Shown here: positions 2,785 to 40,486 of the stretch, piece after piece
How positions within the stretch are numbered: position 1 is the first letter of the stretch
Layout of the letters: every line of letters begins with the position of its first letter
IMG/VR virus record: IMGVR_UViG_3300012988_000001
Location: 246,414 to 310,413 of that record
DNA: 64,000 nt
Strand: one strand, 5' to 3'
Source of the DNA: a virus
Program-made: the position numbers and the translations under genes
Notes under the pieces: generated by a model
What the model saw: the letters and a program-made list of their open reading frames with translations, nothing else
What the model was told of the DNA's origin: nothing
Database searches by the model: none

Positions 2785-2840
2785 AATTGAAAAGATAAAT
2801 ATTATCGGAAGCATCCCTGTGATGTTTCCGATATTTTTTT

Positions 2841-2869
2841 GAGACAAAGAAGCAAAAATGTGATATAAT
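2841..2869 (+). promoter_or_regulatory. class B-like promoter (GAGACA -35, 17 nt spacer, TGaTATAAT extended -10) upstream of topoisomerase gene
   Basis: gagacaaagaagcaaaaatgtgatataat. It shares the aaaatgtgatataat core with 8 other class B promoters. Confidence 0.5.
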
Positions 2870-2907
2870 AATATGGCAAAGAAACAAAGAGACAAAGGAC
2901 TGTAACA

Positions 2908-4881
2908 ATGACCAAACAAAAGAAATCCTCATCCGTGCTTTCTGAACATGACGTTCAGCGACTAAACGACTATCAACATGCTCGCATCCGTACTGAAATG
3001 TACTTAGGTTCACGTTCTGTTCATGAACACCAAGTAGTTCTTTTCGGAGAAGAAGGTTACAATGTTCAGAATCTAGAATGGGTTCCAGCATTGATTACTG
3101 CATTCCGTGAGATCATTGATAACTCCCTTGATGAGTTTAAAAAAGCTGGAACGAAAGATCCAGTACTAAAGATTGATTACAACGAAGAAGATTTATCATT
3201 TAGTATTAGTGATAACGGTCGTGGTATTCCAATCGATTACGTACCAGAGTTTGATGTACACTTGTGTACTATGGTACTAACAGAGACTAAGACAGGTCGT
3301 AACTTTGACGATTCAAAACGCGAAGGTACTATCGGTCAGAACGGTCTAGGTGGTTCCATTACAATGTGCGTTAGTTCTAAAGCAGAACTAGAGATTCACC
3401 GTGCGGGTCGCCCGTACAAAACAGTAGCATCTAACGATGGCTATGATGGTATCTATAAGTTCACACAGAAGTTTAAAGAAGGCACAATCCTTTTCCCTGA
3501 ACTAGATATTCAAGAACCTAACATTCGTAAGGTTCAAGCGGATAAAACTGGAACTTCTATTAGCTTCACGCTAAGTCCTGAAGTATTCAAAAACCGCAAC
3601 CTACCAACTGCGTTAGTATTCAGTATTCTTAAAGAGATTGCTTCAGCTAACCCAGCTTACAAGATTGTCCTTAATGGCAAGAAAATTGCTGTTAAAAACA
3701 CCCCAGAGAAAACTCTCTTCGGTGCAAACAAAATGATGAGCCTAAACGTCAAAGACGAAAGCATTGGTTTTGATAGTACTTTCTATATTGTCCCAAATGC
3801 TGTCCAAGGTATGAACACCAACTTCCATATGCAAGGTATTGTAAACAATGCTCCAGCATTTGATGGTGGTACACACCTCGAAACGTTCAAGAAGTTCTTC
3901 TCCCTAGGCGTTAGTACTGCTCTTGAGAAAGAAGCAAAGAAACGCAAGATGACACCTAACCGTGCTGATATCGAAGAAGGGCTAATGATTTATAATGTGA
4001 CTACAATGAACGCACCATCGTTCAACTCACAGATTAAATCTAAGCTAACTAACGAAAATGTTATTGCTCCAGTGAAAAAAGCGATGACTCCTGAATTCTT
4101 CGATGAACTTGTTAAAAAGAACAAAGAATGGGTTGATGAGATTTTCACTCGTACTTCAGAGCGTACCAATAAGAAAGATGCTGATGAAGATCGCCGTCTA
4201 GCTAAGAAGTTGCTAAAATCTAAAGTTGCCAAACTACTTGATGCAACTGGTACAAACCGTGAAGAATGTATTCTACTAATTGCAGAAGGTGATTCCGCTG
4301 TTAGTAACATGTCTGCTGCTCGTGATTCCAAGAAGCATGGTATTCTACCATTGCGTGGTAAAATCATGAACGTAAACGGAACGGAGAAAACTAAAGCCCT
4401 AATGGATAGTGATTCCCTAAAGGATATCATGGCATCTATCAACCTAATCCCCGGTCAGAAAGCAGTACGTTCAGAATTGAACTACGGTAAGCTATATATC
4501 TGTGCCGATGAAGATGAGGATGGTAAAAACATTGGTGCGTTAGTAGTTAACTTCCTATTCAAATTCTGGCCTGAACTATTTGAAGACCCAGAAAACCCAT
4601 TTGTATATGTTTTCAAAACACCATTTATTATCCTTGAGAAAGGAAAAGAAAGTCGTTACTATTACGGTCACAATGTGGACGAATATAACCCAGAAGAATG
4701 GAAAGGTTGGAAAGCAACTCGTGCTAAAGGATTGGGTACTCTAGAAAAGAGTAACTTCCGTGATGCATTAACAAACGGCGTAGCAGTCGCTATTATCGAT
4801 GATGGTTCACTAGGGGCAACTCTAGACCTAATCTTTAATAAAGACCGTGCAGACGACCGTAAAGAGTGGATGGAAGAATAA
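2908..4881 (+). CDS. DNA topoisomerase II large subunit (T4 gp39-like, GyrB/ParE-type ATPase plus Toprim, unsplit)
   Basis: 657 aa. The N-terminus MTKQKK...DYQHARIRTEMYLGS matches the T4 gp39 start. GHKL ATPase and Toprim (EGDSA) motifs are present. Confidence 0.85.
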   Translation: MTKQKKSSSVLSEHDVQRLNDYQHARIRTEMYLGSRSVHEHQVVLFGEEGYNVQNLEWVPALITAFREIIDNSLDEFKKAGTKDPVLKIDYNEEDLSFSISDNGRGIPIDYVPEFDVHLCTMVLTETKTGRNFDDSKREGTIGQNGLGGSITMCVSSKAELEIHRAGRPYKTVASNDGYDGIYKFTQKFKEGTILFPELDIQEPNIRKVQADKTGTSISFTLSPEVFKNRNLPTALVFSILKEIASANPAYKIVLNGKKIAVKNTPEKTLFGANKMMSLNVKDESIGFDSTFYIVPNAVQGMNTNFHMQGIVNNAPAFDGGTHLETFKKFFSLGVSTALEKEAKKRKMTPNRADIEEGLMIYNVTTMNAPSFNSQIKSKLTNENVIAPVKKAMTPEFFDELVKKNKEWVDEIFTRTSERTNKKDADEDRRLAKKLLKSKVAKLLDATGTNREECILLIAEGDSAVSNMSAARDSKKHGILPLRGKIMNVNGTEKTKALMDSDSLKDIMASINLIPGQKAVRSELNYGKLYICADEDEDGKNIGALVVNFLFKFWPELFEDPENPFVYVFKTPFIILEKGKESRYYYGHNVDEYNPEEWKGWKATRAKGLGTLEKSNFRDALTNGVAVAIIDDGSLGATLDLIFNKDRADDRKEWMEE

Positions 4882-4932
4882 GTACAGAAGGGGATACAGG
4901 AAGTATCCCCGAAATAACAAAGAGGCAAAGGA

Positions 4933-6354
4933 ATGGCTAAATCAACAAAGAAACAAGAAGCAGCGAACGCTATTATTAACCCAACGCTAACGCTACTACA
5001 ATACAACAGTTCTGATTATATTAACCAATCATCATTGGAATATTCTATCAGTACTCTTGACCGTGCAATCCCCGGTATTGATGGATTGAAAGCATCTCAG
5101 CGTAAAGCAATCTTCACGCTAAGTAAAATCTCAGGCGAGATTAAAACTGTATCCGCAGCAGGGCGAATGATCAGTGACGGTATCTACCTTCACGGTGACG
5201 CATCAGCAGCAGGAACACTACAGAACCTAGCATCACCAGTAGCGAATAACTATCCGCTAATTGGTAAGCGTGGCGGTTTTGGTACACAAGTAAACTCCAA
5301 TCCAGCAAGTGCACGTTATACTTATGTTAAACGTACTGCTGTGACCGAAGCCCTAGTTCTTCGTGATATGGATATTGTACCAATGCAACCAAACTACGAT
5401 GATACAACAATGGAACCAACTTACTTCCTACCTATTATCCCACTATCTTTATTTGGTAACGATAGTATGTCTGTAGGTTATAAGAGTCTCATTCTTCCTC
5501 ATAAAATCGAGGATATCATTGACAACTGTATTCGTGCAGTTAATAATAAACCTCTCGAAAAAATGACTCCGTATTTTGTATCTGTTGGTGCAAGTGATCA
5601 AGTTACTGAGCTAGACGAGAACAAATATGAATTTTATGGTCAGGCAGAAGTAATTGATGCCAGTACTGTAAGAATCCTAGGTCTACCACCTCGTGTCAAA
5701 ATTGACAAATTCATTGAGAAACTAATCGCAATGGAAGAGAAAGGTGAAATTCGTGATTATGATAATGATAGTACTGATACTATTGATATCACGATTAAAC
5801 TTCCACGTGGTACATCTGCAAAATGGAAAGAAAAAGATGTAATTGACTATTTTGGTCTAAGCAGCAAATTGACTCAAGCACTTGTAGTACTAGGTGAAAA
5901 TGGTCGAGTTAAAGTGTATAATAACACTTCTGACTTGATTAAAGATTTCGTTCACTTCCGCTTCAAGTTCTATGTGCGTCGTTATGAGCATCTACTTGCC
6001 AAAGCTGAAGCTGAAGTGCGTTATAAAGCTCTAGTAGCTAAATGCTTTGAGAATGAAATGGTAACTAAAATCAAAGATTTCAAGAACCGTCAAGAACTAG
6101 TTAACTTCGTAACTTCTCTAAATGATGACATTGAAGCAACTGATGACAATATTCAAAACATCGTGAACTATGCTTCTTATCGTTGGACTCAAGAGAACTA
6201 CGACAAGACACTAGAAGAAATTCAAGAAGCCCTAGCACTAATGGATGAATACCAATCTCTTTTGGATAACCATGAAGAGATTTGGAAGATTTACGGTCAA
6301 GAGCTAAAAGAACTTCGCAAAATGGATTGTACTCCAAAAGCAGATACTAAATAA
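4933..6354 (+). CDS. DNA topoisomerase II medium subunit (T4 gp52-like, GyrA-type breakage-reunion domain)
   Basis: 473 aa, immediately downstream of the gp39-like gene. The AIPGIDGLKASQRKAIF motif corresponds to the GyrA N-terminal helix and active-site region. Confidence 0.8.
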   Translation: MAKSTKKQEAANAIINPTLTLLQYNSSDYINQSSLEYSISTLDRAIPGIDGLKASQRKAIFTLSKISGEIKTVSAAGRMISDGIYLHGDASAAGTLQNLASPVANNYPLIGKRGGFGTQVNSNPASARYTYVKRTAVTEALVLRDMDIVPMQPNYDDTTMEPTYFLPIIPLSLFGNDSMSVGYKSLILPHKIEDIIDNCIRAVNNKPLEKMTPYFVSVGASDQVTELDENKYEFYGQAEVIDASTVRILGLPPRVKIDKFIEKLIAMEEKGEIRDYDNDSTDTIDITIKLPRGTSAKWKEKDVIDYFGLSSKLTQALVVLGENGRVKVYNNTSDLIKDFVHFRFKFYVRRYEHLLAKAEAEVRYKALVAKCFENEMVTKIKDFKNRQELVNFVTSLNDDIEATDDNIQNIVNYASYRWTQENYDKTLEEIQEALALMDEYQSLLDNHEEIWKIYGQELKELRKMDCTPKADTK

Positions 6355-6360
6355 AAATCA

Positions 6361-6390
6361 AAGGACGCACTTCGCGTCCTTTACTATTAT
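6361..6390 (+). terminator. rho-independent terminator
   Basis: aggacgc-actt-gcgtcct hairpin followed by a T-rich tract. Confidence 0.6.
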
Positions 6391-6429
6391 AAATACGTTA
6401 GCTTTTAAACATTTTGGAGAAATTTAATT

Positions 6430-8817
6430 ATGGCAAATTTTGAGCCACGCTGGGACTTGAAAGCTGATTCAACTGTAATGATCGAAGGTCAAACTACATA
6501 TCTAAGAATTCAATTAAGTAAGAATGATGATAGTACTGATAATGTAATAACATTAGGTGATGACCAATATTTGGAACTATCTTTTACGATAGATGGTAGT
6601 GGAGAAACTCTAGAAGAACGAGATTTTGAATTCTCTGTTGGTGAGAGTATGTCTACTTTAGTTCCAATTGAACAAGGAACTACTGGCAACAAACATATGC
6701 TAGGAAATCATACAGTCAAATTAGATAAAAAATCCTTTACCCTCGCGTCAAGTACTGCTAAACTAGACGTGTATCTAATGAAGTTATACTGTGTTGATGA
6801 TGGTGTTTGGGATGGTCCTGAAAAACTTGACTTCACATTCAACACTATGGATATTATAACCGTTGTTGATGACCAGATAGCAAATCAGGAATCATTTGGT
6901 GTATTAGGTAATACTAAAGCAACTATTTCATACAATAATTCTACTGAATATTGGGTTACACCATCTGTCATTGCACGAGGTGAAAAGTACTGTATTGGGG
7001 CTATGGCGTATGGTGCTGATAGTCGTATCTTTGTTGATGCTTATGGTCAATGCAGACGTTACGATAATGCATTGGATGAAAACCTATACCCAGATGATTT
7101 ATCTAACCGAGTATTCTATCCAACATACCAATTACAACCACTTACGTTAGCATCTACCCCAACAGATGGTATTACTGATTTACGAACTGTTTTAGTTCCT
7201 AAAACTGGTGGGTTTAATGAAGAAGTATCGGTTGTTATCCGTGATACACTTGGTAATATGGTTGATTCTGGATTGAAATTTAATGCCAACGGACAACTAT
7301 TACAAACCTTCATTTATGAATCCGAACCAACTGATGGTTATATAAAGGTACGTATCGTCCCATTATCGGCAATTTATCAAGATCCTGCTGATTCATTCCA
7401 AGTAGGTAAACGTTTCAAAGCATACCAAATGTGGATTTGCCCGAATGATACCTCTTATATAAAAGGTGCACCGAAGCCCGGTCATTTATATCAATTGAAA
7501 GATAACGTTGTTTATCCATATGTAATAAAAAATGAGTACATAAATTCAGTTGAATATGCAGTATTTGATGAAACTGCTTGGAATGATCTAGGTGTGTATG
7601 ATGTACGTTTAGGACAAGGTATAATCAACCAAGAACGTCTATTCAGAATATTGGTTAATGCCAGTACTGGAAGTGGTATTGATTTCGAAACTGATGCTAA
7701 TTTGGGAAGAATTCACGTTGGGGAATATTTTGGTCACACTGTATATCCACAAATTAAGGCCAGTGGTTCATTGGTTACATATAGAATAGTACAATCAACC
7801 TCACCTGATGATATCAGAAAATATGGTTTAGATTTAACTGCTGATGGATTAATGGTAGGTACTGCTTATGCTAGAAGTTCGGATTTTAGTGCAAACGATG
7901 ATATTAAATTAGAGTTTGACGTAATAGCCAATGACAAAAGTGGTGCAACGGTTACTAAGAGATTCAACATTACTATTATTCGTGGATTTGGTCAAAACTA
8001 TTTGGGTGCATCTATTTGTCCTAGTAAAACCTTCGAACGATCATGGTTTGCAAGCATAGCTACTGAACTATATTACAATAACAAAACTTATTATCGTGAA
8101 AGTGATGATAGATATGGTTTACAAAAAGTACCTCGCATGTTGTTAAAAGAAAACTTTGTATCACAAAGTTATCCTTATACAACATTAAAAGATATCAAAA
8201 AAGTACTTCAGGATAAACTTGTTGATCCTAACAATGGTGCTCCAGTACCGAATGGTGTTTTCTCACTAGTGATGGGGAATTATAAAATCGTATCGGCACT
8301 TGACAACCTAGGGAATGTGGTGTATGATTTACTTTATCGCGAATTACACCCAGCAGGTACACGTGTGAGTGTGAGTTTGAATCCACGAACATACACCGAT
8401 ACCGATAATGAATTGTTTGCAGAAATCTTTGGTATGCGTCAGAATGTTTTCAAGGCTGTTGGTGAAGATGTAACAAATCTTTATACTGACCCTGATGATT
8501 TGCGTAACCGTGGATTGGTTGTTCCCGCAATTTTAGGTCTATCTGATGAAATGTTAGATACCGTTCCTCGCTTTATGAATCATCCATACGAAGACGATGG
8601 ATTGAAACCTCAATTCATGACTATTATACCAGTAGCATACTTCAAGCCCGGTCAAGCGGAAGCATTCTTTAACCGAATGGTTCAAACTAACGAACATAGT
8701 TCATTGGTAAATACCGAGTTCGAGGTTCATGGAGTAGAATTTACATTCCATACCTCTCAATATGAATTGTATGTTCAAGATAAATTTACAATTCCAATTA
8801 TTGGAAACGCACTATAA
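6430..8817 (+). CDS. hypothetical protein (795 aa)
   Basis: Long ORF with an RBS. No motif recognised. Confidence 0.5.
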   Translation: MANFEPRWDLKADSTVMIEGQTTYLRIQLSKNDDSTDNVITLGDDQYLELSFTIDGSGETLEERDFEFSVGESMSTLVPIEQGTTGNKHMLGNHTVKLDKKSFTLASSTAKLDVYLMKLYCVDDGVWDGPEKLDFTFNTMDIITVVDDQIANQESFGVLGNTKATISYNNSTEYWVTPSVIARGEKYCIGAMAYGADSRIFVDAYGQCRRYDNALDENLYPDDLSNRVFYPTYQLQPLTLASTPTDGITDLRTVLVPKTGGFNEEVSVVIRDTLGNMVDSGLKFNANGQLLQTFIYESEPTDGYIKVRIVPLSAIYQDPADSFQVGKRFKAYQMWICPNDTSYIKGAPKPGHLYQLKDNVVYPYVIKNEYINSVEYAVFDETAWNDLGVYDVRLGQGIINQERLFRILVNASTGSGIDFETDANLGRIHVGEYFGHTVYPQIKASGSLVTYRIVQSTSPDDIRKYGLDLTADGLMVGTAYARSSDFSANDDIKLEFDVIANDKSGATVTKRFNITIIRGFGQNYLGASICPSKTFERSWFASIATELYYNNKTYYRESDDRYGLQKVPRMLLKENFVSQSYPYTTLKDIKKVLQDKLVDPNNGAPVPNGVFSLVMGNYKIVSALDNLGNVVYDLLYRELHPAGTRVSVSLNPRTYTDTDNELFAEIFGMRQNVFKAVGEDVTNLYTDPDDLRNRGLVVPAILGLSDEMLDTVPRFMNHPYEDDGLKPQFMTIIPVAYFKPGQAEAFFNRMVQTNEHSSLVNTEFEVHGVEFTFHTSQYELYVQDKFTIPIIGNAL

Positions 8818-8826
8818 GGAGATAGT

Positions 8827-9135
8827 ATGTTTGATCCACTATTCAGTACTGCGGGAATGTCAGACCGTGAGTTACAACAAAAAATTTTCGATATGAGTGA
8901 ACGTATCAGCCGTGCACGTGCGAGTGGTATTAATGATGATATCATTCAACGTATGTATATGGTTCTACAAGCATGTGATGATGAAGTAATGCAACGTTCT
9001 GCTAGTAAAGAGTATGAAAAATTAGAAGAAGAAGACAAATGTGTTTTTGATTCTGATGAGTACTTAAAAACCGAAGAGGATAAACAGAAAAAACATGAAG
9101 GTCCAAGGAAACAGATATATAAATCAGGATGGTGA
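8827..9135 (+). CDS. hypothetical acidic protein (102 aa)
   Basis: ORF with GGAG RBS (aaggagatagtatg). Confidence 0.4.
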   Translation: MFDPLFSTAGMSDRELQQKIFDMSERISRARASGINDDIIQRMYMVLQACDDEVMQRSASKEYEKLEEEDKCVFDSDEYLKTEEDKQKKHEGPRKQIYKSGW

Positions 9136-9613
9136 TGTACATTGCAATTTAAATGCAGTAGTATACGCTATGAACTGTGGTGCAGACTTACAGTATCTTA
9201 AATTAATGGAGATGGATGAGTTTGAACGTGCCAAGTTCAATGATAATTGTAAGAAATTTGGATTAGAATATAGAATGCTCGATTATACAATTGAGCATGA
9301 TAAAAATCATGAGCTATGGGTCTATGACCCAGCTTATGATAAAATAAACCTTGAGGATTACTTTCTTAACAAATGTTCTAACGAAGAACAAATGGATAGA
9401 GTAAAATATGAATTGGGTTTATATGAAGAATATAACATGACTAAACTACTACGCTGTATGATTTGGCTAGTAGATTACTTCGAAGAAAATAATATCTTTT
9501 GGGGTTTAGGTCGTGGTAGCTCAGTTAGCAGCTACTGTTTATATCTACTCGGTTTGCACTTAGTTGATAGCATTAAATACGATTTAGATGTAAACGAATT
9601 TTTGAAATGGTAA
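9095..9613 (+). CDS. DnaE (Pol III alpha)-like fragment, truncated just before the catalytic PDFDVDF motif
   Basis: 172 aa ORF. ...LLRCMIWLVDYFEENNIFWGLGRGSSVSSYCLYLLGLHLVDSIKYDLDVNEFLKW aligns with E. coli DnaE ...[52 protein letters not shown]. It is followed by a stop codon. Confidence 0.5.
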   Translation: MKVQGNRYINQDGDVHCNLNAVVYAMNCGADLQYLKLMEMDEFERAKFNDNCKKFGLEYRMLDYTIEHDKNHELWVYDPAYDKINLEDYFLNKCSNEEQMDRVKYELGLYEEYNMTKLLRCMIWLVDYFEENNIFWGLGRGSSVSSYCLYLLGLHLVDSIKYDLDVNEFLKW

Positions 9614-9629
9614 AATATAAGGATATATT

Positions 9630-10019
9630 ATGGCTAAACACACTTCCTATCGTGGTCAAAGTATTGACATTGATATGATGAAATATCAAAACCAGCATGA
9701 CCGTGCTTTAGGTAATGCTAATATGAACGCACGTGGTGACAAACTAGGTGCTGGTGGTACTATTGTTAAAACTCGCGAAGAATTAATCGCAGAGCGTGAA
9801 CGACAAATGCAACTACCAGATTATCTACCAGAACATACTAGTCATTCTGTTCAAACACAAAATGCAGTAGTAGAAGATTCTGGATTTGATGATTCTATGT
9901 TTGAAATGCCTGAACAAGAACCCGTAGTGGCTCCAGTGGTTGCTCCAGTTGAAGTACAGGAAGAAGTTCAAGAGAAAGCTGCACCACGCCGTGTACGTGC
10001 TAAGAAAGACGACGAGTAA
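9630..10019 (+). CDS. hypothetical protein with VVAPVVAPV repeat and basic C-terminus
   Basis: ORF with RBS aaggatatattatg. Confidence 0.4.
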   Translation: MAKHTSYRGQSIDIDMMKYQNQHDRALGNANMNARGDKLGAGGTIVKTREELIAERERQMQLPDYLPEHTSHSVQTQNAVVEDSGFDDSMFEMPEQEPVVAPVVAPVEVQEEVQEKAAPRRVRAKKDDE

Positions 10020-10029
10020 GGAGTAAGAT

Positions 10030-10353
10030 ATGGAGTCAAAAAAACTTACTGCTTGCAAAGGAAAAGTACTAGTAACTAACTTAGACAGTGGTGAACAAAA
10101 AACTGCCGCTGGTATTATCATCGGGGATGATGATGGTAAACTACGTGGTGTACGTAGCCGTTGGGCTGAAGTATATAGCGTAGGTGAAGATATTACCGAT
10201 ATACAAGTTGGTGAATGGATTTTGATTGAGCATGGTCGTTGGTCACGTACAATCTATATTGAAGGTACAGCACTAAATTTAGTCGATTATCCAAAAAGTG
10301 TACTATGTGCAGCACCAGAGAAACCAAAGAATTATGTTGGTTTCGGAAAATAA
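10030..10353 (+). CDS. GroES/T4 gp31-like co-chaperonin (Hsp10 fold)
   Basis: 107 aa. KVLVTNLDSGEQKTAAGIII...GDDDGKLRGVRSRWAEVYSVGED..VGEWILIE pattern resembles GroES (VIVKR..ETKSAGGIVL...GEVLAVG...VKVGD.V). Confidence 0.5.
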   Translation: MESKKLTACKGKVLVTNLDSGEQKTAAGIIIGDDDGKLRGVRSRWAEVYSVGEDITDIQVGEWILIEHGRWSRTIYIEGTALNLVDYPKSVLCAAPEKPKNYVGFGK

Positions 10354-10360
10354 TTTTAAT

Positions 10361-10389
10361 GCCCGGAGTTTTCTGGGCTTTCTTTTTGA
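10361..10389 (+). terminator. rho-independent terminator
   Basis: gcccgga-gttt-tctgggc hairpin plus tttcttttt. Confidence 0.6.
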
Positions 10390-10398
10390 AGGTATAAA

Positions 10399-10674
10399 AT
10401 GATTACAGATGACGGTAAAGTTGATTTTAACTTCGTTCAGTTAGAATCTAAAAATGGAAAATTTTACTTCGAACACCCAAAGAACAAAAAGATTGTTTAT
10501 GAGGTTCCTCATGATCAATTTAGATTCCTTTTCGTTAAGGCAGCACAGGATACCGCTAATGGTAGTATCCTAAAAAAGAAATCTAATTCATTTGAGTACT
10601 TACTAAGTCAACTCGAAATGAATGAAGACCTATTTCAAGCAATGTTATACCCAAATTCAGAATGGACTATTTAG
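10399..10674 (+). CDS. hypothetical protein (91 aa)
   Basis: ORF with RBS gaaggtataaaatg. Confidence 0.4.
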   Translation: MITDDGKVDFNFVQLESKNGKFYFEHPKNKKIVYEVPHDQFRFLFVKAAQDTANGSILKKKSNSFEYLLSQLEMNEDLFQAMLYPNSEWTI

Positions 10675-11642
10675 GAGTAAGTATGAGTAATAATGCACTA
10701 TGGACAGAAAAGTACCGCCCACGTGACATGGAAAACTATGTCTTTAAAAACCCAGCATTTGAAGCTAAAATGATTGAGTGGATTACTACAGGCGATATTC
10801 CACACATCGGTTTCTTCGGTCCAGCAGGAACGGGTAAAACTTCGGCTATTGGTGTCCTAATCAATGGCCTAGAAGCCAATGGTCACATCGATCGTTTTGA
10901 TGTTATGACCCTAAACATGTCCGATGAGGGTATTGACGCAGTTCGTGAAAAGATCGAACCAGCAGCCCGTCTAACGCCTAATGGAAAGTACCGTATCTTT
11001 GTACTAGAAGAGATGGAACAGATGAACCAAAAGGCACAAGCGTCCCTCAAACGTACAATGGAAGACTATGCTGATAATGCTCGTTTCATCCTAACTTCCA
11101 ATGAACCACACAAGATTCTAAAGCCTATCCTTTCTCGTGTACAAAACATTACAATCGAGAAACATGATCGTGAAGCGTATATGACTCGTGTCATTAACGT
11201 TCTATTAGCAGAAGAAGTAGATTTGAGTTCAGAAGACAGTATCAATCTAGTTGACAAGTATATCAATGCAACGTATCCTGATTTCCGCAAAACACTAAAC
11301 ACCTTGCAGAGCAGCATTGTAGATGGTAAACTTCTAAAACTCGAAGATAGTGTAGATAGCACTGCTAACTACCGTGCACTTATCATCGATGCACTTCAGA
11401 ATGGTAGCATTCGTGAAATGCGTGAACTTATTGTTCAAAACGTTCCTGAAGATGAAATGGATGGGTTCTTTACATTCCTTTCGCAGAATGTTAATATGTT
11501 CACTTCAGACGAAATCACTCGTATGAAGATTATCGTTAAAATTCGTGACGCAATGGTTAAACAAGCCTCTGTCTCTGACCGTGAATTGAACCTAAGTGCG
11601 TTACTATGTGAAATTGATCTAACTGTCTCAGGAGACATGTAA
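10662..11642 (+). CDS. clamp loader ATPase (T4 gp44-like, RFC-type AAA+)
   Basis: EKYRP...GPAGTGKTS Walker A, DEAD-like LEEME Walker B, SRV sensor. C-terminal ...TYPDFRKTLNTLQS matches T4 gp44 ...NFPDFRKTIGELDS. Confidence 0.8.
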   Translation: MDYLGVSMSNNALWTEKYRPRDMENYVFKNPAFEAKMIEWITTGDIPHIGFFGPAGTGKTSAIGVLINGLEANGHIDRFDVMTLNMSDEGIDAVREKIEPAARLTPNGKYRIFVLEEMEQMNQKAQASLKRTMEDYADNARFILTSNEPHKILKPILSRVQNITIEKHDREAYMTRVINVLLAEEVDLSSEDSINLVDKYINATYPDFRKTLNTLQSSIVDGKLLKLEDSVDSTANYRALIIDALQNGSIREMRELIVQNVPEDEMDGFFTFLSQNVNMFTSDEITRMKIIVKIRDAMVKQASVSDRELNLSALLCEIDLTVSGDM

Positions 11643-12268
11643 TGTCCAAGCGTAAAGCTATCGTATTTGATGTGGATGAAATTTTACTTGACCACCTCGG
11701 AGGTTTCCGGGTGTGGTTGGCTAAGAAACATGGCATCATTTGTAAAAGTGATTATCCAGATCAGTACGATTTGACTGAATGGATGGGAGTAGCAGACCAG
11801 AAAGAAGTAGTGAAGTACTTGAAAGAGTTCAACGAAACTTCGTGGGAGTTTGGTGTACTAAAACCACAATCAGAAAGTGTTATATCGTTTATGTTTGCTT
11901 TACGCCACACTTTCCCAGATGCGGTATTTGCAGCACTAACCAAATCTGGCACAATGGGTCATGGTGAAGTTCTTCGCCGTGCTAACTTAGAACACGTTTA
12001 CCCAGACGTACTAGATGAAGTACACATTGTTGAAATGTACGAATCTAAACGTGGAGCCTTACATAAGCTCCAAGCTAAGTACGATGTAGTTGCTCTCGTA
12101 GATGACTATATTGAGAATATTGAAACAGCAGTCGATATGGGTATTCGTGGTATTATGTTGAATTGTCCACATAATGCACAGTACTCCCAGCGTGAAGATT
12201 TTCATTACGCTGGAAATTGGCCTTCAATTATCCACGAAATCTGTACGGTAATGAATAAAGGGGAGTAA
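11642..12268 (+). CDS. HAD-superfamily 5'(3')-deoxyribonucleotidase-like protein (NT5C family)
   Basis: N-terminal VFDVDEILLD (DxD HAD motif I), size and later VDDY motif typical of 5'-deoxyribonucleotidases. Confidence 0.6.
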   Translation: MSKRKAIVFDVDEILLDHLGGFRVWLAKKHGIICKSDYPDQYDLTEWMGVADQKEVVKYLKEFNETSWEFGVLKPQSESVISFMFALRHTFPDAVFAALTKSGTMGHGEVLRRANLEHVYPDVLDEVHIVEMYESKRGALHKLQAKYDVVALVDDYIENIETAVDMGIRGIMLNCPHNAQYSQREDFHYAGNWPSIIHEICTVMNKGE

Positions 12269-12333
12269 TCCCCTTTAGTTGTTTTTATATTCAGTAAATA
12301 AGGATATAATTATGTAACATAAAGGAACATAAA

Positions 12334-16252: not shown

Positions 16253-17395
16253 ATGTCCGAGAAAGATATCACTCCAGCAACTAAAGCACCACGTACTCGT
16301 AAAGCTGCACCGAAAGCAACTGCTACCAAGACCAAAGCGAAAGTTAAAGCTGAAAGTGAAGTTTTCGAACAGTCTGAAAAGCAGCTACCGACATTGACCT
16401 CTGCAAAGGGTCAGACTATGGAACTGACTGTTTCTAACATTCACAACTTTGGTATGGAAGCTGGTCAAAGCATCTCTGTACTGAACGACCAGATCCTTAA
16501 CCGTGTTAAGGTTGCTGACAGCGGTGAATTTGGTGAAAGCGTAAACAACATTCTTGCTCTCACCCGTAGTGTTGACATTGAATCTTTGGGTAATAAAAAC
16601 CAAGGCATCGTAGGTAAATTCTTAGGTTTGTTCCGTGACGCAAAACGTCAAGTAACCGACCAGTTGAACACCAGCTATGACCAGATTCAAGAAATCGTTA
16701 CTACCCTTGATGGCGGCGTTGCACGTATGACCGATGAAGCACGTTGGTTGGAAAAAGTTTATACTGCTAACATCGAACATTTGAACGAACTAAAATCAGC
16801 ACTAGTTTGCATTGAAGATGTGAAAGCACCACAAGAAGCTATTCTCGATGGTATGCGTTTGGACGACACTGTAGAAGTTGAGAAGTTCGAAGAACAGAAA
16901 CTTATCGTAGAAGCACTCGATAAGCAAGCGGATAAAGTACGTCGTTTGATTACTCTATCCCAGCTAATGGCTCCACAGATTATGTCCATGCGTAAGGTTA
17001 ACACCAATACTCATGAGAAGTACCAGACTCTAATCACGACTACCATCCCAGCATGGAAGACGCAGATGAGCCTCGGTCTAATCAGTGATGCACAACGTAA
17101 AGATAACGAGCTTTCAGCTAAGATCGATGATCAGACTAACCTACTACTATCCAATAACGCGGATACCGTAGCGAAGAACATGGTTGACTCTGCTAAAGCT
17201 AACCAACGTGGGGTTGTAGATTTGGATACACTACGCAAAGTACAGAACACTATGCTCCGTGGTATCAACGATACCATCCTAGTAGAGCAGAGCGGTAAAG
17301 CAGAGCGTGAAAAAGCAAAACTTGAAATGGAAAAAATGGATCAAGATTTGAAAAACGCACTACTTGAGATTGCCGACAAAACTCACAAGAAATAA
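16253..17395 (+). CDS. TelA/YaaN-family (toxic anion resistance-like) protein
   Basis: 380 aa. C-terminal half ...SQLMAPQIMSMRKVNTNT...TTIPAWKTQM...QRGVVDLDTLRK...GKAEREKAKLEMEK parallels B. subtilis YaaN/TelA ...QMAPQI...TIPLWKNQM...ERGIVDIETLK... Confidence 0.65.
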   Translation: MSEKDITPATKAPRTRKAAPKATATKTKAKVKAESEVFEQSEKQLPTLTSAKGQTMELTVSNIHNFGMEAGQSISVLNDQILNRVKVADSGEFGESVNNILALTRSVDIESLGNKNQGIVGKFLGLFRDAKRQVTDQLNTSYDQIQEIVTTLDGGVARMTDEARWLEKVYTANIEHLNELKSALVCIEDVKAPQEAILDGMRLDDTVEVEKFEEQKLIVEALDKQADKVRRLITLSQLMAPQIMSMRKVNTNTHEKYQTLITTTIPAWKTQMSLGLISDAQRKDNELSAKIDDQTNLLLSNNADTVAKNMVDSAKANQRGVVDLDTLRKVQNTMLRGINDTILVEQSGKAEREKAKLEMEKMDQDLKNALLEIADKTHKK

Positions 17396-23687: not shown

Positions 23688-23863
23688 AAGTTAGATTAGA
23701 AGAAGATTACCCAGAGTACGAATACGGCCCTCGTGGTGGTGATATCCTTGAAGTAGTTTCACAGGATGAAGAAGAAGGTGTATTCTATTGCAAATTTGGT
23801 GATGAAACAGATTTTGCCATTTATGAATACGAAGTGGAAGAGGTTATCGAAGATGACCAATAA
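23684..23863 (+). CDS. small highly acidic protein (59 aa)
   Basis: ATGA overlap with the upstream ORF. MKVRLEEDYPEYEYGPRGGDILEVVSQDEEEG... Not in the ORF track because it is under 60 aa. Confidence 0.35.
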   Translation: MKVRLEEDYPEYEYGPRGGDILEVVSQDEEEGVFYCKFGDETDFAIYEYEVEEVIEDDQ

Positions 23864-24815
23864 ACTAAATCGTTCCATTGGCTGCTTAATGGGACTAGCA
23901 GTAGGTGATGCTGTCGGAACCACATTAGAGTTTAAAGAACGTGATTATGAGAACATTACTGATATGGTAGGTGGTGGTCCGTTTGATTTAGATCCGGGAC
24001 AATGGACTGATGATACCAGTATGGCACTATGCCTAGGTTACGCACTACTTGAAGGTCACGACATCAATAGCATAACAGAAAGTATAAAGTGGTCAGAAGC
24101 CCAATTAGTGAATTATGTTGATTGGTACAGAAACGGTTACTGTAGTTCTAATGGTCACTGTTTTGATATTGGTGGTACTACCCGCAACGCATTACTAAAT
24201 TACATTCGTGATGGTGTTTTGCGTAACAATGATCATTTCCTAGATTCAGGTAATGGTAGCCTTATGCGTCTTGCTCCTATTCCAATCTATTACAATACGA
24301 ATAACGCAGAAGAGTTGTTCACTCTTGTGTATGCTGCTGATCTAAGTAGTAGTACTACACACGCTAGCGAATTATGTCGTCAATCTTGTATTGCTTTCTC
24401 AGTACTTTTGAATCGTGCTATCAATGGCAGTACTAGTGAAGGTTCTCCGAATAAAGCGAATCTCTTAGACTTCCCAGCACAAGTTTGGAGAACATTTGGC
24501 GTTTCAAGTAATTTAGTACTTGACATAATGAACGGATCGTATCAAAATAAGACTCGTGATGAAATCAGTTCGAGTGGTTATGTGATTGATAGCCTAGAAG
24601 CCGCTCTATGGGCGTTCTGGAACACTGATAACTTCCGTGACGCAATCCTATTAGCTGCTAACTTAGGTGACGATGCAGACACCGTAGCGGCGATTACAGG
24701 ACAGATTGCAGGTGCATTCTATGGCCTAGATGGTATCCCTGATGATTGGGTACAGAAGATTGCGAAGAAAGATAAGATTTTGAAATTAGCAGAGGACTTG
24801 TATAATGCAGGTTGA
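23853..24815 (+). CDS. ADP-ribosylglycohydrolase (DraG/ARH family)
   Basis: GCLMGLAVGDAVGTTLEF, TDDTSMAL, FDIGGTTRNAL, GNGSLMRLAPI, DADTVAAITGQIAGAFYG motifs. The ATG at 23853 is the start chosen here. The six-frame track starts the ORF at an upstream in-frame ATG (23766). Confidence 0.85.
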   Translation: MTNKLNRSIGCLMGLAVGDAVGTTLEFKERDYENITDMVGGGPFDLDPGQWTDDTSMALCLGYALLEGHDINSITESIKWSEAQLVNYVDWYRNGYCSSNGHCFDIGGTTRNALLNYIRDGVLRNNDHFLDSGNGSLMRLAPIPIYYNTNNAEELFTLVYAADLSSSTTHASELCRQSCIAFSVLLNRAINGSTSEGSPNKANLLDFPAQVWRTFGVSSNLVLDIMNGSYQNKTRDEISSSGYVIDSLEAALWAFWNTDNFRDAILLAANLGDDADTVAAITGQIAGAFYGLDGIPDDWVQKIAKKDKILKLAEDLYNAG

Positions 24816-31625: not shown

Positions 31626-32462
31626 ATGTTGAAGAAAATTCTACTAGCAGTTGGTATTTGTTTTGGTGCACTAGCTCTAACAGGCTGTGATCGTGTTGAA
31701 CCGGGTTTTGTTGGGATTAAAGTCAACAAACTAGGTGATGACAAAGGTGTTGGTGAAGTAGTTGGTGTAGGTCGTGTATGGACTGGTATTAACACTGATC
31801 TATATGTATTCCCTATGTTCAAACAAATGAAGTCATATGACGAAGAATTTGTATTCCAAATGCGTGATGGTACTACCATCGGTTACAAAATTGGTGTGTC
31901 ATATAAAGTAGACGCTGGTAAGGTTAAAACTGTATTCCAGACTTACCGTAAAGGCGTAGACGATATTACTGATACTGATCTACGTCAAAAGATTAGTGAC
32001 TCACTAACCCGTCTTGGTAGTAAGATGAGTACTGATCAGTTTATCGATGGTGGTAAAGCACAACTACTTGATGATGCACTAAAAGATATTCAAGGTGAAA
32101 TGGGTCCAGTTGGTATTCAGATTCTAAGTCTATCTTGGATGGGGAAACCTTCATATCCTCCATCAGTTGACGCTTCTATCAACGCAAAAGTAACTGCGAA
32201 CCAGAAGACTCTACAACGTCAGCAAGAAGTGCTACAGAAGAACGCAGAAGCTGATATGGCTCGTTCTGAAGCAAAAGGCCAAGCAGATGCTAAACTACTC
32301 CTAGCTGAAGCTGAAGCAAAAAGTATCGAAATTCTAGGTGACGCACTACGTAAAAACGCAGACGTTAAAGACCTAAAAGCAATCGAAAAATGGGATGGTA
32401 AACTACCAACTATGATGGGTACTCAAGCAGTTCCATTTGTTGATGTTCCAAACACTAAGTAA
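31626..32462 (+). CDS. SPFH/band-7 (prohibitin/HflK-like) domain lipoprotein
   Basis: Lipobox LALTGC. VEPGFVGIKVNKLG...VWTGINTDLYVFPMF, then a charged coiled-coil region typical of SPFH proteins. Confidence 0.65.
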   Translation: MLKKILLAVGICFGALALTGCDRVEPGFVGIKVNKLGDDKGVGEVVGVGRVWTGINTDLYVFPMFKQMKSYDEEFVFQMRDGTTIGYKIGVSYKVDAGKVKTVFQTYRKGVDDITDTDLRQKISDSLTRLGSKMSTDQFIDGGKAQLLDDALKDIQGEMGPVGIQILSLSWMGKPSYPPSVDASINAKVTANQKTLQRQQEVLQKNAEADMARSEAKGQADAKLLLAEAEAKSIEILGDALRKNADVKDLKAIEKWDGKLPTMMGTQAVPFVDVPNTK

Positions 32463-39592: not shown

Positions 39593-39977
39593 AATTGAAA
39601 TTGAATATAGTACTGGTAACACCTTCGGTACTCATATTGAAACAACTGTTATTGATGATGTAGTATTCGCAGATCTAGAGAGTGCTAAACAAGCTCTAAA
39701 GATTATTGCTAAACACAAAGAAATGTGTGAAGCAGCAAACGTCGTTTGGCGTACAACTGACGCTGAACGTAAAGCAAAACTAGCTGAAATTGCTGCACAA
39801 CCGTGGGCGGTAAAATCCGAATTCAGCAGTGATTATGAGTACCAAGTAAAAGTCCCTACCTCTAAGGATTGTCAAGAGTGGGAGAACATTTACTGCTTCT
39901 GGATGGGGTACTTTGAAACCCTACACGAAGCCCGTATCGTGTCCGACGAAGATGATGGAATGTCGATCTCTTTCTGA
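39579..39977 (+). CDS. hypothetical protein
   Basis: ORF. Confidence 0.45.
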   Translation: MMMYRIEIEYSTGNTFGTHIETTVIDDVVFADLESAKQALKIIAKHKEMCEAANVVWRTTDAERKAKLAEIAAQPWAVKSEFSSDYEYQVKVPTSKDCQEWENIYCFWMGYFETLHEARIVSDEDDGMSISF

Positions 39978-40006
39978 TTGACAGGTACAATTTGATTTAG
40001 TATAAT
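39978..40006 (+). promoter_or_regulatory. class A promoter (TTGACA-17-TATAAT)
   Basis: Read directly. Confidence 0.65.
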
Positions 40007-40033
40007 GGCCTCCTTAATTGGGGGCTTTTTCAT

Positions 40034-40486
40034 TTGGAGGAAATCATGGGAAACACAGTCCTGACTTTGTTGCGTAAAATTAAACATCCTGTTATCCAAC
40101 GTCGCGTCCATTCGGAGAACGAGAGTCGTTATTATAATCATTGGACAAGTAGTGCTGGTGGTTTTGCAGTACTCCGCACAAACACGCACTATGAAATTGC
40201 TCTTGAGTTTAAACACAACCAAGAGAACTATCGTATTAAGTTATACCGTGATTCATTTTCTATGGTGCGTAAGCGTGTTGCAAAATTCTACGCCCACACT
40301 GGTTATCACATGCAGAAACCAGAAATAGTTGCAGAACTCGAAAACATAGCGTATAATGATTTTGAAGCAACAATATTCCAACACTCACTACTTGGTGAAC
40401 TGGGAATGTTCGGAACACAAGAGGCAGAAATGCTATTACAACTACGTAACATCTATTTTGGAGAATGCGATGAATCCACGTCCTAA
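40034..40486 (+). CDS. FQ-motif family-like protein
   Basis: ...DFEATIFQHSLLGELGMFGTQEAEMLLQLRNIYF. Confidence 0.45.
   Translation: MEEIMGNTVLTLLRKIKHPVIQRRVHSENESRYYNHWTSSAGGFAVLRTNTHYEIALEFKHNQENYRIKLYRDSFSMVRKRVAKFYAHTGYHMQKPEIVAELENIAYNDFEATIFQHSLLGELGMFGTQEAEMLLQLRNIYFGECDESTS

Follow-up and report, generated by a model that had tools for sequence, protein, structure and literature searches.

A 172-residue Pol III alpha-like protein as the probable N-terminal subunit of a split, reduced polymerase in a Rak2-like jumbo phage

The stretch of viral DNA analysed here (IMG/VR record IMGVR_UViG_3300012988_000001, positions 246,414 to 310,413; 64,000 nucleotides (nt), hereafter the window) contains an open reading frame (ORF) that encodes a protein of 172 amino acids (aa) related to the alpha subunit of bacterial DNA polymerase III (Pol III alpha, DnaE). 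This protein, the N-unit, is probably (probability about 0.8) the N-terminal subunit of a two-gene, strongly reduced C-family polymerase of T4-related group 2.2 jumbo phages. The other subunit, the C-unit, is encoded by a distant gene of the same genome. The palm homology of the N-unit to Pol III alpha is significant, and its gene is intact and under purifying selection. Judged from alignments, the N-unit and C-unit families are exactly complementary in DnaE coordinates.

The arrangement is already known from comparative genomics, and annotations of Rak2-like phages include the N-unit gene as a matter of routine. The CBB genome paper (PMC5259590) noted a truncated protein of 172 aa that resembles Pol III alpha, and a family B polymerase, CBB_263, is reported from the same phage. 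A split minimal Pol III alpha in group 2.2 jumbo phages, made up of an N-terminal unit that binds nucleoside triphosphate (NTP) and a C-terminal unit that binds Mg2+ and template, was described by Iyer, Anantharaman, Krishnan, Burroughs and Aravind (2021, Viruses 13:63; PMC7824862). A family B polymerase accompanies the split pair in these phages, and auxiliary DNA synthesis was suggested (PMC7824862). Because of this prior description, the present analysis adds one orthologue and confirms independently that there is a complementary partner in the same genome. A literature search returned no experimental follow-up on the split enzyme and no relevant expression data in the PA5oct omics paper.

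Homology of the N-unit to Pol III alpha

The N-unit gene and its two diagnostic segments have the following positions in the window.

9095..9613, plus strand, stop codon included: N-unit gene (putative nucleotide-binding unit of a split minimal Pol III alpha-like polymerase), 172 aa; from the ORF list, phrog_11127 and PF07733
9368..9607, plus strand: segment with sequence-detectable Pol III alpha palm homology, aa 92-171, corresponding to E. coli alpha ~321-392
9509..9523, plus strand: GRGSS motif (G139, R140, G141, S142, S143), invariant in 42 diverse members and aligned with E. coli GRGSGAGS

The N-unit matches the Pfam family PF07733 (DNA_pol3_alpha) with E=3.7e-10 and 40.3 bits, above the curated cut-off of 23.9. 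In this alignment, aa 92-171 lie on profile positions 16-95 of 260. A family profile of 42 N-units, compared with PDB sequences, aligns with E. coli Pol III alpha at residues 321-392. The family profile also matches the full-length DnaE of Pseudomonas phage nickie in hhalign (probability 95.6%, E=1.1e-8; N-unit aa 97-172 on DnaE 337-415). DnaE similarity had been proposed for this ORF in a first-pass annotation made from the sequence of the window, to be given up if a profile search returned nothing significant. The Pfam and hhalign matches bear the proposal out.

The AlphaFold2 model of the N-unit has a mean predicted local distance difference test score (pLDDT) of 82. Its best PDB matches are C-family polymerases only, and the Pol III alpha proteins of E. 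coli, M. tuberculosis and Thermus are at the top of the Foldseek list. In this comparison of a predicted model with the PDB, the N-unit is structurally equivalent to E. coli alpha ~275-392. Since the equivalence begins near E. coli residue 275, the ~45 N-terminal residues appear to be family-specific. The start codon at 9095 is backed by residues 1-25, which are conserved among orthologues.

At the other end of the protein, L170 is aligned with E. coli alpha L392. The N-unit therefore stops ~7 residues short of the catalytic Asp401, in the established numbering of E. coli alpha. The protein is thus truncated before the catalytic aspartates as the first-pass annotation had described, but at a shorter distance than the 10 residues given there. 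GRGSS represents the GS motif, through which Pol-beta-like nucleotidyltransferases contact the triphosphate of an incoming nucleotide. A PF07733 match above the cut-off and a GRGS motif are both expected of a C-family catalytic subunit, and both are present in the N-unit. The catalytic Asp triad, also expected, is not in this polypeptide but on the C-unit. A PHP domain and the C-terminal fingers, clamp-binding and OB domains are not found by Pfam in the N-unit ORF or its neighbours.

Conservation of the N-unit

The window belongs to a Rak2-like (121Q / GAP32 / CBB type) jumbo phage. Among deposited genomes, the Salmonella phages Munch, 7t3 and PHA46 are nearest to it, with ~78% nucleotide identity. 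By tblastn, a copy of the N-unit of the same size is present in every Rak2-like phage with 77-86% identity, and the closest deposited relatives (Munch and 7t3) share 86% aa identity with it. More distant copies are found, again by tblastn, in XaC1, a Vibrio phage, Stenotrophomonas and Agrobacterium phages, PA5oct-like phages and XacN1, and even in 141-kb Alishewanella phages.

The N-unit matches PHROG 11127 from end to end (1-171/171, E=3e-83). At least 120 homologues are present in a collection of 5.8 billion proteins. The 120 that are listed are 95-183 aa long; 107 of them have 160-183 aa, and the shorter ones span part of the query. An exhaustive profile search yields at least 484 N-unit clusters (50% identity, E<=1e-30), and among the best 150 of the 484 every representative has 156-196 aa. 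Across 42 diverse N-units, residues G137, G139, R140, G141, S142, S143, S146, Y147 and others are invariant. A C-terminal EFLK motif ends all 42 aligned sequences, barring short tails in a few. With a stand-alone length of ~170 aa, an end-to-end match and the EFLK terminus, the present protein is a member of this family.

The Nei-Gojobori ratio of nonsynonymous to synonymous substitution rates (dN/dS) between the N-unit genes of the window and Munch is 0.08 and is comparably low in both halves of the protein. The codon count is exactly 172 in all five orthologues compared. No fused, unsplit minimal version is found among the 150 listed N-unit relatives, the 120 listed C-unit relatives or phage records. 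The intact version that the first-pass annotation had proposed to look for in related phages is therefore found in one sense and not in the other: an intact 172-aa N-unit is present in all Rak2-like phages compared, but a fused minimal form is not among the sequences listed.

The C-unit family

The C-unit was first located through the annotation of PHA46, independently of the 2021 description. In this genome, a second small coding sequence with the label 'DNA polymerase' precedes the N-unit gene by 33 kb and has a UvsW-type helicase gene on one side and primase/DnaB genes on the other. It encodes 210 aa, matches phrog_11778 and has the sequence METTTYKKARTDVDIDV...HKSGIHF...YQKVDILSQ...FIAMIRPGK...YFKKPHAYAY. 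The family begins at TDIDIDV and carries a third Asp (KVDIL), an RPG motif and a KxHAxxY finger motif. In 28 diverse C-units, D12, D14, D16, H44, G47, K76, D78, R145, P146, K183, H186 and Y190 are invariant. Lengths range from 157 to 220 aa among the 120 homologues listed.

Compared with the PDB, the only polymerases matched by the C-unit profile are two entries of M. tuberculosis DnaE1 (E=0.07-0.19). The C-unit aligns with DnaE1 in four collinear pieces: SMPDIDIDFDDRR (PDIDIDF region, 412-424), 483-524, GLLKMDFLGL...VIALYRPGP (568-673) and YAFNKSHAAGYGMV (FNKSHAAGY region, 773-788). The Pfam family DNA_pol3_finger is weakly matched by 13 of the 28 C-units, and no other family recurs. The AlphaFold2 model of the C-unit has a pLDDT of 93. 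Pol III alpha accounts for all of its best 12 Foldseek matches in the PDB; the probability is 0.98-1.00 for the first eight and 0.35-0.60 for the other four.

A gene for a DnaQ/RNase T-type 3'-5' exonuclease (10984..11802 of the PHA46 locus analysed; Pfam RNase_T, E=6e-14), annotated as 'polymerase exonuclease subunit', lies ~5 kb upstream of the C-unit gene in PHA46. In the present phage, the corresponding region is upstream of the window. This exonuclease is a possible proofreading partner for either polymerase.

Complementarity, co-occurrence and the partner gene

In M. tuberculosis DnaE1 coordinates, the N-unit ends at 406 and the C-unit starts at ~412. Complementarity was tested by tblastn with an artificial concatenate of the N-unit and the C-unit as the query. 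Phages with a normal DnaE give a single alignment that runs through the junction (for example query 97-207, 36-199 or 102-207), whereas every sampled phage with the small proteins gives two separate places. The search returned 135 records with 230 places, which puts both genes in ~95 phage genomes. The C-unit alone as the query finds 96 records, and the N-unit is also present in ~95 of these 96. The two genes are on the same strand and are never adjacent. The distance between them varies widely.

Alishewanella phages: 11 kb from N-unit gene to C-unit gene
XacN1: 15 kb
PHA46: 33 kb
PA5oct: 44 kb
Atu_ph07: 182 kb

The window is part of the metagenomic contig ERZ27311759:k141_2757135 (366,036 bp), with 0 mismatches over 19.6 kb. 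The same contig encodes a 208-aa C-unit (P0389) on the same strand, whose start precedes that of the N-unit gene by 32,575 nt. This position is ~23.5 kb before the first base of the window, and the partner was therefore out of sight of the first-pass annotation. The present genome thus contains a distant C-unit gene with metal- and template-binding motifs. Among the explanations offered in the first-pass annotation was a split polymerase with its other parts elsewhere, and this part is upheld by the partner 32.6 kb upstream and by the ~95 genomes that carry both genes. The intein or intron that was suggested as a cause of the split is not upheld: a Hint or intein domain is detected in neither protein, the two abut in DnaE coordinates so closely that nothing is left over for intein halves, and both genes have start and stop codons of their own.

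Proposed enzyme

In the proposed enzyme, the N-unit would supply the first part of the palm (E. coli alpha ~275-392), including the GRGSS triphosphate-binding motif. The C-unit would supply the metal-binding Asp strand (TDIDIDV), the H..G residues, the third Asp (YQKVDIL), RPG and KxHAxxY. The two units would most likely associate non-covalently, with the strand before GRGSS completing the beta-sheet of the C-unit. A single active site, built from the GS loop and the three aspartates, would thereby span the interface of the two subunits. The product would probably be an auxiliary polymerase or nucleotidyltransferase beside the family B replicase. The pair lacks a PHP domain, a clamp-binding region and OB and tau-binding domains, and only a minor part of the thumb and of the fingers is present. 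We infer the physical assembly of the units, templated DNA synthesis and the biological role of the split enzyme.

Alternative explanations

Three points weigh against a split C-family polymerase. The sequence statistics of the C-unit are marginal on their own (E=0.07 against the PDB; hhalign E=0.084 against a single DnaE), and its assignment to Pol III alpha is based on the five collinear hallmark motifs, the structural matches and the N/C complementarity, taken together. The two genes are never adjacent and may be in separate transcription units, which is unusual for obligate partners. Processive templated synthesis is not assured in an enzyme that has neither a thumb nor a clamp-binding region and only a small part of the fingers. 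The last point leads to an unlikely alternative in which the units do assemble, but the enzyme is a non-templated nucleotidyltransferase (a terminal transferase, a primer- or end-modifying enzyme or a nucleotide-signal synthase) that has kept only the Pol-beta-like core. The loss of the OB and PHP domains along with the thumb, most fingers and the clamp-binding region, the reduction to 172 plus ~210 aa from ~1160 aa and the presence of a family B replicase in these phages are all in keeping with such an enzyme. However, RPG and KxHAxxY, typical finger motifs of the C family, are invariant and would be dispensable without a template, and the best structural matches are polymerases only.

It is considerably less likely that the N-unit works alone, as a decoy or adaptor for replisome components of the host or phage or as an NTP-binding regulator. 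The first-pass annotation had raised a related idea, a truncated module that binds host replisome partners, which finds no support here; it is made unlikely by the invariant nucleotide-binding motif and by the fact that the N-unit accompanies the partner almost without exception (in ~95 of the 96 records that have the partner). For a unit acting alone, the exact complementarity of the two families at the split point would also have to be explained, and the catalytic-site GRGSS would not be expected to be invariant in a pure binding module. E. coli alpha 321-392 is not known as a docking surface for beta, epsilon or tau. Covalent joining of the halves by a split intein or by trans-splicing introns has a precedent in the distant dnaE-n and dnaE-c genes of Cyanobacteria, which are joined by a split intein, and some phage DnaE genes are indeed interrupted by homing endonucleases, as in Bacillus phage KLEB27-3. 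Such joining is nevertheless barely credible for the present pair. The N-unit ends ~2 residues past the equivalent of E. coli L392 and the C-unit starts ~10 residues before DxD, so that there are no spare residues, and neither protein has a Hint or intein match in Pfam. The lengths are constant over hundreds of clusters, and the genes, each with its own start and stop codon, are 11 to 182 kb apart. An equally remote reading takes the N-unit ORF as a decaying fragment of a once complete dnaE, the decayed remnant of the first-pass annotation. The ORF does cover only ~10% of a normal DnaE, and the catalytic aspartates are absent. However, decay is contradicted by the dN/dS of 0.08, the constant 172 codons in five orthologues, the invariant key motifs, GRGSS among them, and a worldwide family of at least 484 clusters with a common, fixed C-terminal end.

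Searches for a second polymerase piece in the window

No PHP domain is found upstream of the N-unit gene, where the ORFs (102 aa, and a 795-aa virion structural protein) are without a Pfam match. No second polymerase piece is found in the six frames of the window by phmmer with two full-length phage DnaE proteins, and no C-unit homologue by tblastn and hmmsearch with the C-unit family. Likewise, no missing half is found by the regular expressions PDxDxD and KxDxLG over all six-frame ORFs of the window or by Pfam in its ten largest ORFs. These results agree with the first-pass annotation, which had reported no PHP domain upstream and no continuation downstream in any frame.

Two candidates were rejected. 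A minus-strand ORF (39893-40240) has one 10-bit match but overlaps plus-strand genes and is taken as a chance match. The ORF directly downstream of the N-unit gene (9630..10019), whose product starts ...RGQSIDIDMM, was considered as the missing catalytic strand, but the second Asp is not conserved within its family. In addition, hhalign against the C-unit family shows no similarity, and there is no Pfam match.

Genomic neighbourhood

The N-unit gene is surrounded by the following genes.

2908..4881 and 4933..6354: topoisomerase II subunits, T4-type
6430..8817, plus strand: virion structural protein, 795 aa
8827..9135, plus strand: upstream ORF, 102 aa, phrog_15348, context only; it shares its final 41 nt, in a different frame, with the beginning of the N-unit gene
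9630..10019, plus strand: downstream small ORF, 129 aa, phrog_14844, no Pfam match, context only
10030..10353, plus strand: gp31-like / GroES-like co-chaperonin, phrog_931 'head morphogenesis', Pfam Cpn10 E=7e-5
10662..11642: clamp loader, T4-type

The clamp loader and the topoisomerase II subunits confirm the T4-type replication accessory genes that the first-pass annotation had reported, and the gp31-like co-chaperonin may be added to them. Such T4-type genes are also carried by relatives of the phage. The 41-nt overlap between the 102-aa ORF and the N-unit gene is annotated identically in Munch, GAP32, 121Q and XaC1, and is 1-17 nt in distant relatives. It probably reflects translational coupling.

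A phrog_14844 gene follows the N-unit gene directly in Rak2-like phages, XacN1, PA5oct and Atu_ph07. The N-terminal core of the protein (S-x-RG-x-x-[IV]D...GNANMNARGDxLGxGGxIVKTREE) is conserved, and its charged tail is variable. It might be a third component of the split enzyme. The co-chaperonin gene is two genes downstream of the N-unit gene, a position that is kept in PA5oct and Atu_ph07. The order of N-unit, small ORF, co-chaperonin and clamp loader is kept in Munch, PA5oct and Atu_ph07 and partly in XacN1.

Three further plus-strand genes of the window are unrelated to the polymerase.

16253..17395, plus strand: TelA-like toxic anion resistance protein
23766..24815, plus strand: ADP-ribosylglycohydrolase (Pfam E=2e-68)
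31626..32462, plus strand: SPFH/Band 7 protein (E=8e-23)

Transcription context

The T4-late-type sequence TATAAATA has a single copy in the window (6388-6395, plus strand), 34 nt before the virion structural gene at 6430..8817. In shuffled sequence, 6.55 copies are expected. Strong terminator-like hairpins are present on the plus strand at 2803-2833, 10361-10378 and 12256-12277. Together, the single late-type TATAAATA and the hairpin at 10361-10378 suggest that the N-unit gene is part of a late transcription unit. The five genes at 6430..8817, 8827..9135, 9095..9613, 9630..10019 and 10030..10353 probably form one such unit. A sigma-70 promoter scan around the N-unit gene gives 39 sites against 35.7 in shuffled sequence, which is no excess, and was not used. 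The partner gene has helicase and primase genes as its neighbours, and on the C-unit strand TATAAATA is not found in the 6.6-kb locus around it.

A doubtful but conceivable extension is that the split is functional and not a historical accident. The halves would come from different transcription units and make up a temporally gated second polymerase or nucleotidyltransferase. The N-unit would be made after the late-type promoter, with the structural gene and the gp31-like co-chaperonin, and the C-unit from the locus of the helicase and primase genes. An active site would form only when both halves are present.

Comparison with known systems

The present gene pair is most similar to the split minimal Pol III alpha of group 2.2 phages. 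The N-unit (PHROG 11127) is orthologous and stands alone at ~172 aa, and a distant gene encodes the C-unit (PHROG 11778) with the Mg2+- and template-binding parts. There is no essential difference, except that the present copy comes from the contig of an uncultured phage.

The bacterial Pol III alpha proteins (DnaE, DnaE1 and PolC) share the first Pol-beta-like part of the palm and the GRGS motif with the N-unit. Unlike these proteins, the phage N-unit has no PHP, thumb, clamp-binding, OB or tau-binding region, and the Asp triad is on another polypeptide. The split units together have ~380 aa, compared with ~1160 aa in E. coli alpha.

In Cyanobacteria, Pol III alpha is likewise made from two distant genes. 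The break in the cyanobacterial DnaE is far downstream in the protein, and an intein fragment on each half ligates the two. In contrast, the phage protein is broken within the palm, immediately ahead of the catalytic strand, and the break is not flanked by intein N- or C-fragments.

The closest detectable full-length relatives are the phage DnaE proteins of Pseudomonas phage nickie and Bacillus phage KLEB27-3, with 28-35% identity over the homologous segment. They differ in that the PHP domain and the whole polymerase are encoded in one 1130-aa gene or in two adjacent pieces around a homing endonuclease. In Bacillus phage vB_BauM_KLEB27-3, dnaE (2798..7168 of the locus analysed) is broken by an HNH endonuclease gene into pieces of 691 aa and 428 aa. 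This split is of the homing-element type, and the position of the break differs from that in the jumbo phages.

Biological significance

An active site that is divided between two small proteins encoded tens of kb apart is biologically unusual, a point already made by Iyer et al. (2021). With ~380 aa in total, the pair would be the smallest known C-family polymerase module, and it occurs beside a family B replicase of the archaeo-eukaryotic type. If active, the split enzyme would show how small the catalytic core of Pol III can be, with consequences for ideas on the origin of the bacterial replicase.
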